Of a stretch of 64,000 nt of DNA, positions 21,244-21,954 are shown one piece after another. Where the stretch lies: the IMG/VR virus record IMGVR_UViG_3300023371_000071; one strand, given 5' to 3'. Under the pieces are notes generated by a model, which had not been told where the DNA came from, ran no database searches, and saw nothing but the letters and a program-made list of their open reading frames with translations. This DNA comes from a virus. Taxonomy: Duplodnaviria; Heunggongvirae; Uroviricota; Caudoviricetes. Positions within the stretch are counted from its first letter, which is position 1. Every line of letters begins with the position of its first letter. Made by a program: the position numbers and the translations under genes.

Positions 21244-21954
21244 ATGCAAGAGCGATATAAAAAGAATTGCGGCTCTTTTATGACAGAAGAGCATCAAAAT
21301 GTTCTTCTTTCTAAAACTTTCGCGGTAATTGGAGTGGGCGGCAATGGAAGTTATATCGCAGAATTTCTTGCTCGATAGGGATGCAAAAAATTGATTGTAA
21401 TTGACTTTGATTCTTTTGAAGAATCTAATCTTAATCGACAGGCATTTTGTTTTGAAGATAATCTTCAGCTCAATAAAGCTGAGCAAGCTGTTCAATACCT
21501 CCGTAAAATCAATTCATCTATTGAATATGAATGGTATACTTTCCCTTATGGAACACAAAATATTCCTTCCATGCAAGAATGCGATATGATTTTTACCGCC
21601 GCAGATGGAAATCAATATACTAAAAAATATCGAGAAAATTTGCGTGAATTAGTAAAGATCGGTATTCCAGTCGTTGAGCAATGCATTTGGAATCGTGGTG
21701 TTGAAGTATGCATTATTTCTGAATCATCTCTTTTAGAAATGTATGATGAAAATACTGCACGATGGGAATATTCTGCACATGATCCTTGCATTATTTCTCA
21801 ACCCGCATGGTTATGTTCATTGGCTGCAAGTTTAGCAACAGCAGAAGCATGGAGATATTTCTCTAAACAAGATCCTTTGATCGGTCAAAGATTAGTTTAT
21901 GATATAGATGAAAATCAATTACACCGTTTGGTTAATGGGAAGTTCGTTTATTAA
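21244..21954 (+). CDS. E1-like ThiF/MoeB-family adenylyltransferase containing one in-frame TAG (21376..21378)
   Basis: GGAGG RBS 7 nt before ATG 21244; FAVIGVGGNGSYIAEFLAR[TAG]GCKKLIVIDFDSFEESNLNRQ is the Rossmann GxGxxG + LA(x)[AS]GVG + DxD..SNLxRQ signature split only by TAG; frame continues into ORF 21391..21954; 236 aa in total. Confidence 0.6.

Follow-up and report, generated by a model that had tools for sequence, protein, structure and literature searches.

TAG as a probable rare glutamine codon, read by a phage-encoded CUA tRNA, in a gut/rumen-metagenome phage with a ThiF-like gene

A phage of about 168 kb from a gut/rumen metagenome very probably uses genetic code 15, in which TAG is a rare glutamine codon decoded by a CUA tRNA that the phage itself encodes (we put the probability of this reading at roughly 0.88). 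Under the standard code, the ThiF-like, GIY-YIG, portal and terminase-like genes of this phage are split or truncated, and under code 15 each of them would be whole. Reading of TAG as glutamine with phage suppressor tRNAs has already been published (Borges et al., 10.1101/2021.08.26.457843; Peters et al., PMC9523058); the present case is an instance of this known phage recoding and not a new phenomenon, and it adds to the recoded phages a lineage with SPbeta-like replication genes. Coordinates below refer to the window, the whole 64,000-nucleotide stretch of DNA that was analysed, unless another locus is named.

In the mechanism that we propose, the phage tRNA at 19471..19561 would supply the TAG decoder, host GlnRS, or else a non-discriminating GluRS and then GatCAB, would charge it with glutamine, and the charged suppressor would outcompete host RF1. 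Glutamine charging is the expected outcome because the acceptor end of this tRNA bears the tRNA-Gln signature. With the suppressor present, glutamine would be inserted at codon 45 of the ThiF-like gene and the complete E1-like adenylyltransferase of 236 aa would be made. If the suppressor were lacking, a host assumed to read TAG as stop would terminate translation after 44 residues, with the ATP-binding motifs still incomplete. We found no release-factor gene and no phage aminoacyl-tRNA synthetase in the ~105 kb examined of the ~168-kb phage. Its FTHFS is nearest to Oscillospiraceae proteins, at a flat 57-60% identity, and its DnaB is nearest to those of SPbeta-like and Enterococcus phages (~38% identity). 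The host is probably a member of the Bacillota, presumably one that uses the standard code.

The ThiF/E1-like adenylyltransferase gene occupies 21244..21954 on the + strand and comprises 236 codons plus a stop (237 in all), running from the ATG at 21244 to a TAA at 21952-21954 with a lone in-frame TAG at codon 45 (21376..21378). A preliminary description made from the sequence had given these coordinates and this single TAG correctly, and the motifs that it described as contiguous, IGVGGNGS, FLAR[TAG]GCKK and DFDSFEESNLNRQ, do lie in one uninterrupted frame. The good ribosome-binding site that it noted is a Shine-Dalgarno sequence, GGAGG, at 21234..21238 (+ strand, read directly from the letters), 5 nt 5' of the ATG. 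It had further expected read-through to give a normal E1-like protein of ~236 aa and had called for an HMM search, which agrees with that expectation over the full length: residues 8-227 of the read-through product match positions 4-225 of the 238-position Pfam ThiF profile (PF00899) with E = 4.1e-26 and 92 bits against a cut-off of 28.1, and the match covers both sides of the TAG. A protein search returned 18 full-length orthologues at 60-96% identity, in which the first 44 codons are conserved like the remainder.

The AF2 model, computed for a protein (P0001) 96% identical to the window's ThiF-like protein, reached a pLDDT of 94.4 and a pTM of 0.93. Foldseek placed ThiF, MoeB, PaaA, MccB and UBA5 structures at TM 0.74-0.80 to this model (among them 1zkm, 1zud and 1jwa); the model superposes along its entire length on ThiF and MoeB of E. 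coli, as it does on the PaaA, MccB and UBA5 adenylation domains. G30, G32, G33, G35, D56, S61, N62, N64, R65, Q66 and K78 are invariant among the orthologues, and conservation of D54 and D121 is 90% or higher, so that the GxGxxG nucleotide-binding motif, the D-x-D...S-N-L-x-R-Q motif and the conserved Lys and Asp are all found in the protein. As modelled, the product is a genuine minimal E1-like ThiF-family enzyme with a complete fold. It shares with ThiF, MoeB, TcdA, MccB and PaaA the same Rossmann fold with GxGxxG, DxD...SNLNRQ and the conserved Lys and Asp, but differs from them in having no CxxC zinc site, conserved Cys or rhodanese domain; the N-terminal peptide clamp of MccB and PaaA is also absent. 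The sequence contains no CxxC at all, and none of the columns that are invariant or 90% conserved is a Cys. The protein stays below the cut-offs of all NCBIfam equivalog models for ThiF, MoeB, TcdA and SAMP-E1, scoring 81 versus 159 and 65 versus 275 with the ThiF models, 57 versus 449 with MoeB and 43 versus 304 with TcdA. Among GenBank phages, megablast of the 19.0-24.5 kb region gave tRNA matches only and no close relative, and tblastn of the ThiF-like protein gave only distant N-terminal matches.

Codon 45 is TAG again in a second, independently assembled locus (L004, Logan SRR14556670, 96% aa identity), which argues that it is neither chance nor error, and codon 81, CAA in the window, is a further TAG in the L004 gene. 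In seven other loci (L001/2/3/5/6/7/8), which represent four distinct relatives at 68-74% identity, codon 45 is CAA, and position 45 is Gln in 18 of 18 close database proteins. In the database the L004 TAG appears as Q, and the Gln of P0001 is itself a translated TAG; for this reason the Q residues of database proteins were checked on DNA in the loci that were read. More distant members of this ThiF-like subfamily have L, I, M, V or T at position 45, and TcdA has Thr at the equivalent position. The preliminary description had placed the TAG at a Ser/Ala position, which does not agree with these relatives. It had also held that a sense codon other than Ser/Ala-like in related phages, occurring together with additional lesions, would speak against its reading; such a codon was found (CAA), the additional lesions were not, and all 236 residues are conserved. 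Judged from the comparison of these loci, the TAG is real and conserved, comes with no lesion, and leaves the gene intact. It also appears evolutionarily young, since it is common only to the closest relative and CAA stands in all others; a young TAG is simplest to explain as a synonymous change, CAA to CAG to TAG, and most simply the codon would need no purpose beyond being synonymous in code 15.

Usage across the window fits a code in which TAG does not serve as a stop. Of the ORFs on the + strand with 100 aa or more, 36 stop at TAA, 29 at TGA and one at TAG, and this single TAG "end" lies inside a longer gene. The 60 curated confident genes of the window (15,547 codons) end in TAA (37) or TGA (23) and never in TAG; their glutamine codons are CAA (158), CAG (341) and TAG (7), sense TAG thus making up 1.4%. 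No gene ending in TAG was found in the two flanks (L009 and L012, 10 kb on each side, 20 kb in total), with one 61-codon ORF of L012 ambiguous for a TAG stop. The seven sense TAGs of the window are distributed over three genes, one in the ThiF-like gene, one in a 93-aa gene and five in a GIY-YIG gene. The 93-aa gene (27615..27896, + strand) lies directly after MetK and has its TAG at codon 15 (27657-27659), which stays TAG in 4 of 4 distinct relatives at 63-69% aa identity; this particular TAG may itself be under selection and maintained. The GIY-YIG gene (55439..56398, + strand; Pfam GIY-YIG E = 1.5e-10) encodes an N-terminal hydrophobic segment and an apparent coiled coil, and has sense TAGs at 55601, 55634, 55679, 56177 and 56246. 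It is by far the TAG-richest gene in the replication region, and its relatives (L030-L061) often have more than five. A 78-codon ORF at 44665-44901, just 5' of a TTGACA-17-TATAAT promoter-like site, has a TAG at codon 71 and a TGA eight codons on; it is ambiguous, containing either the sole TAG stop in the window, with a near back-up stop, or an additional sense TAG.

TAG is denser elsewhere in this phage. In a locus further upstream (L194, same phage), the portal gene (phrog_2739, 3e-72) contains three in-frame TAGs and a terminase-like gene two, and the late-gene stretch of this locus has 8 TAGs in ~1,900 codons versus 7 in 15,547 for the window, an approximately nine-fold greater density. 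The window corresponds to the tRNA, metabolism and replication region, with both gyrase subunits (A and B), DnaB, DNA ligase, RNA ligase, MetK and FTHFS. Published recoded phages likewise have a replication region near the standard code and recoded packaging genes (Borges et al., 10.1101/2021.08.26.457843). Sparse sense TAG together with absent TAG stops is the pattern expected on the published route to recoding, on which TAG first becomes rare as a stop, the phage gains a suppressor, and sense TAGs build up afterwards. Also upstream in this phage, a series of small genes encoding ~150-230 aa lies on the other strand (L013, ~700-10600, overlapping L194 10000-20211); they have repeated motifs in common, which suggests a paralogous family, and naive ORF calling renders them as seemingly broken frames.

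We then asked which amino acid TAG encodes by aligning the confident window genes with 32 IMG/VR relatives around gyrA and with the relatives of the tRNA region, keeping only TAG sites with ungapped flanks at least 50% identical. At 19 independent, well-aligned sites, the partner of TAG was Gln in 10, against a background of 3.0% (binomial p = 4e-11), Ser in one, and Leu or Tyr in none; the non-Gln partners, Ser included, account for 9 of the 19, the others being K, R, H, D, F and I. The near-invariant YVG[Q]A site of GIY-YIG has Q in 19 sequences, TAG in 12 and no other state. The same Q/TAG pairing occurs at DRWK[Q]H and at two DnaB sites, SAT[Q]LN and AIM[Q]VIG, where the TAG is in relatives. 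Because TAG sites pair with Gln in homologues, we infer that TAG stands for glutamine (genetic code 15), and not for the Ser/Ala-like residue that the preliminary description had proposed for codon 45. That description had also seen the ThiF-like gene as interrupted and had drawn no connection between the TAG and the tRNA at 19471..19561; both would instead belong to a genome-wide code 15.

The candidate decoder, an amber suppressor tRNA with a CUA anticodon (19471..19561, + strand, 91 nt, CCA encoded), was found by ARAGORN and scores 53 bits with the Rfam tRNA model. It lies 1.7 kb upstream of the ThiF-like gene, on the same strand, within a tRNA array of over 33 genes, and it is 100% identical in four relatives (L001, L005 and L007 among them) whose proteins are ~70% identical to those of the phage. 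Its acceptor end has an unpaired A1.C72, G2-C71, G3-C70 and G73, and G10 and U35 are also present. The combination of G2-C71, G3-C70, G10, U35, G73 and a weak 1:72 pair is the Gln identity set for E. coli GlnRS, and a first pair other than G-C is also used by the non-discriminating GluRS and the amidotransferase GatCAB to select tRNA-Gln (PMC9976931). The variable arm of the suppressor is 21 nt long, so that the tRNA-Gln identity elements are present and the short 4-5-nt variable loop is absent. tRNA-Gln is normally a short-armed tRNA, and by textbook rules a long arm with G73 points to serine. After removal of the variable arm, the nearest tRNA in the window is tRNA-Gln(CUG) (18007..18081, + strand); at full length, the best match in the window is tRNA-Leu(TAG), which shares AAGGCGTAAG, in the 3' half of the variable arm. 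Class-II E. coli su+3 tRNA-Tyr amber suppressors that are mutated at position 1, 72 or 73 become charged with Gln, so a long arm is compatible with glutaminylation. The suppressor would thus work like a tRNA-Gln without being an ordinary one.

A pattern scan of IMG/VR for this suppressor family returned 43 loci (L063-L105) on about 40 phage contigs, most of them 130-395 kb long. Its members have in common an acceptor end resembling that of tRNA-Gln and a long hairpin in the variable arm. Among 22 distinct long-armed suppressors of the window type, 1:72 is U-A in 12, A.C in 6 and something else in the few others, and position 73 is G or A. The stem of the variable arm differs in sequence yet pairs, and its loop is CUGA in 19 of 22. 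RNAalifold confirmed the four standard arms, and the variable arm, which MAFFT misaligned, was judged by folding the sequences singly. Several of these contigs have an additional short-armed CUA tRNA. We found no mention of a long variable arm on phage suppressor tRNAs in the searchable recoding papers, and we do not claim that it is undescribed. It is possible, if somewhat doubtful, that the suppressor is a natural class-II-shaped Gln tRNA (Gln acceptor end, CUA anticodon, long arm) whose arm could be a functional determinant. If so, the arm might let host GlnRS or GluRS/GatCAB charge the tRNA in spite of its altered anticodon, or alternatively offer a handle for phage-controlled code switching; a long-armed Gln-type suppressor of this kind could serve as a natural test case for the charging of stop-codon decoders. 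At Rfam gathering thresholds, the whole window contains tRNAs only, with no theta ribozymes or other RNA families. Three tRNA-like genes at 7745-7870, 7877-7994 and 8289-8403 (115-126 nt; Rfam tRNA 41-47 bits) were found by ARAGORN in intron mode only and have long variable arms and insertions of 26-44 nt near the anticodon arm, unusually short for bacterial or phage tRNAs; a truncated tRNA-like match lies at 24359-24423.

A reading of TAG as Ser, or as a different amino acid of the class-II type (Leu or Tyr, for example), is very unlikely, although parts of the tRNA and of the protein family lean that way; of the alternatives it comes nearest to the small residue proposed in the preliminary description. 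The 21-nt arm and G73 recall the three tRNA-Ser genes of the window, which have G73 and a long variable arm, and the full-length match to tRNA-Leu(TAG) would favour Leu; canonical ThiF and MoeB carry small residues at the position of codon 45, which favours a Ser-type reading, and the Thr of TcdA would suit a small residue too. Against these stand the 19 TAG sites (1, 0 and 0 for Ser, Leu and Tyr versus 10 for Gln), the exclusive alternation with Gln at YVG[Q]A and the Gln pairing at the DnaB sites. The acceptor end, Gln-like and with 1:72 unpaired, is moreover unlike that of the window's tRNA-Ser genes (GGAG...) or of its tRNA-Leu and tRNA-Tyr genes (A73), and the su+3 tRNA-Tyr mutants at 1, 72 or 73 illustrate how a class-II tRNA takes Gln. 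Least probable of all the alternatives, and hardly conceivable, is that the CUA tRNA is a tRNA-Pyl and TAG pyrrolysine. ARAGORN does label the gene "tRNA-Pyl", a label that rests on the CUA anticodon alone; the D-loop of tRNA-Pyl is tiny and its variable loop has 3 nt, whereas the suppressor has a normal GG-containing D-loop and the 21-nt arm, no PylS or PylBCD domain was found among the proteins scanned, and TAG aligns with Gln.

Two further readings concern the ThiF-like gene rather than the codon. A nonsense mutation or assembly error in what would be a pseudogene is highly improbable: the TAG is the sole stop within the gene and CAG to TAG is a single transition, but the independent sample has the same TAG plus a second one at another Gln site, no further lesion accompanies them and all 236 residues are conserved. 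The genome has a matching suppressor tRNA and no gene ending in TAG, and TAGs also occur within the essential portal and terminase-like genes and, in relatives, within DnaB. A selected timing switch, in which the enzyme would stay off until the suppressor accumulates, is unlikely but deserves more weight. It follows a published model for recoded phages (Borges et al., 10.1101/2021.08.26.457843), termination as early as codon 45 would leave a dead 44-aa fragment, and the TAG retained by the 93-aa gene in every relative indicates that some TAGs are maintained. However, beyond the window only the closest relative has TAG at codon 45 of ThiF, with CAA in four other lineages, and the suppressor gene belongs to the same array on the same strand and may be made with the ThiF mRNA.

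The code 15 reading places this phage beside the crAss-like, Lak and other code 15 gut phages, with which it has in common in-frame TAGs at Gln positions, depleted TAG stops, a CUA suppressor, TAG-richer packaging genes and a gut/rumen setting. It differs from the published examples (Borges et al., 2021/2022; Peters et al., 2022) in being another lineage, the nearest GenBank phages being ~38% identical in DnaB, in the very sparse use of TAG in the window, and in showing no release-factor gene in the ~105 kb examined. Its suppressor resembles E. coli supE (tRNA-Gln CUA) and su+3 in the CUA anticodon, the weak or absent 1:72 pair, G73, G2-C71 and G3-C70. The variable loop of supE has 5 nt and the arm of the phage tRNA 21 nt, and unlike the su+3 mutants the phage suppressor is a conserved natural gene.

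As roles for the ThiF-like enzyme, the preliminary description had offered a tRNA-thiolation E1 of the TtuC/MoeB type or part of a ubiquitin-like conjugation module, and neither proposal gained support. For the former, none of the ORFs of 50-140 aa near the gene ends in GG (those in the window that do are far off or over tRNA genes), a ThiS/MoaD-like partner is absent, and the CxxC and conserved Cys are lacking. For the latter, a search for the E2 or JAB partners that it had suggested looking for nearby found no E2, JAB or Ubl in domain scans of the neighbours, which have cREC_REC, PDDEXK_5 or no domain. The adjacent 141-aa product (21966..22391), its candidate partner, was tried as a Ubl or E2 and set aside: it has no Pfam, NCBIfam or PHROG match and no GG end, and its family (86 clusters) occurs without ThiF in three other phage or prophage contexts (L106-L109).

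A U32-like TIM-barrel protein of ~290 aa is encoded 3 kb downstream of the ThiF-like gene (24993..25883, + strand) and has no significant Pfam match. In two distant phage contigs, whose ThiF-like proteins are 38% and 32% identical to that of the window, one or two U32-like copies lie directly upstream of ThiF, making this the only conserved associate found for the subfamily in distant phages. The U32 "peptidase" family includes TrhP, RlhA and UbiU/V, which are prephenate-dependent tRNA, rRNA and quinone hydroxylases, and we know of no U32 pathway that involves a ThiF-like enzyme. Chorismate mutase (11130..11387) and MetK are also encoded by the phage. This neighbourhood of U32-like protein, chorismate mutase and MetK makes a role in RNA modification plausible, and we offer as a low-confidence guess that the enzyme and the U32-like protein might act in one pathway of RNA or tRNA modification, in which the enzyme would adenylate a carboxylate substrate. 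A distant phage contig with the ThiF and U32-like operon (L113, Logan ERR9539573) is itself heavily recoded, containing 18 in-frame TAGs in 7 genes, and the related L112 operon contains none. The only further domain hint in the L112 operon proteins was a non-significant radical-SAM match (E = 0.034).

Other features of the region are recorded here in their own right. Auxiliary metabolic genes centred on prephenate, SAM and one-carbon units lie at 11130-11387, 24993-25883, 26541-27611 and 45794-47434 in the window and also in the flanks (L009 12572-13321; L012 1963-2796 and 12289-12882), and encode chorismate mutase, DAHP synthase, the U32-like protein, MetK, FTHFS, methylene-THF dehydrogenase/cyclohydrolase and a formate/nitrite transporter. 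Genes that look like RNA repair or RNP components lie at 20065-20379, 28687-30201, 30779-33250, 33588-34388 and 36881-38323, and their set comprises cREC_REC, DUF2828/DUF7788, major-vault-protein shoulder and repeat domains, RlaP and an RNA ligase. Within the tRNA array are two PDDEXK_5 genes for PD-(D/E)XK endonucleases (13695-14126 and 23775-24218), of which relatives have one to three copies in differing places, as expected for mobile homing-type genes.
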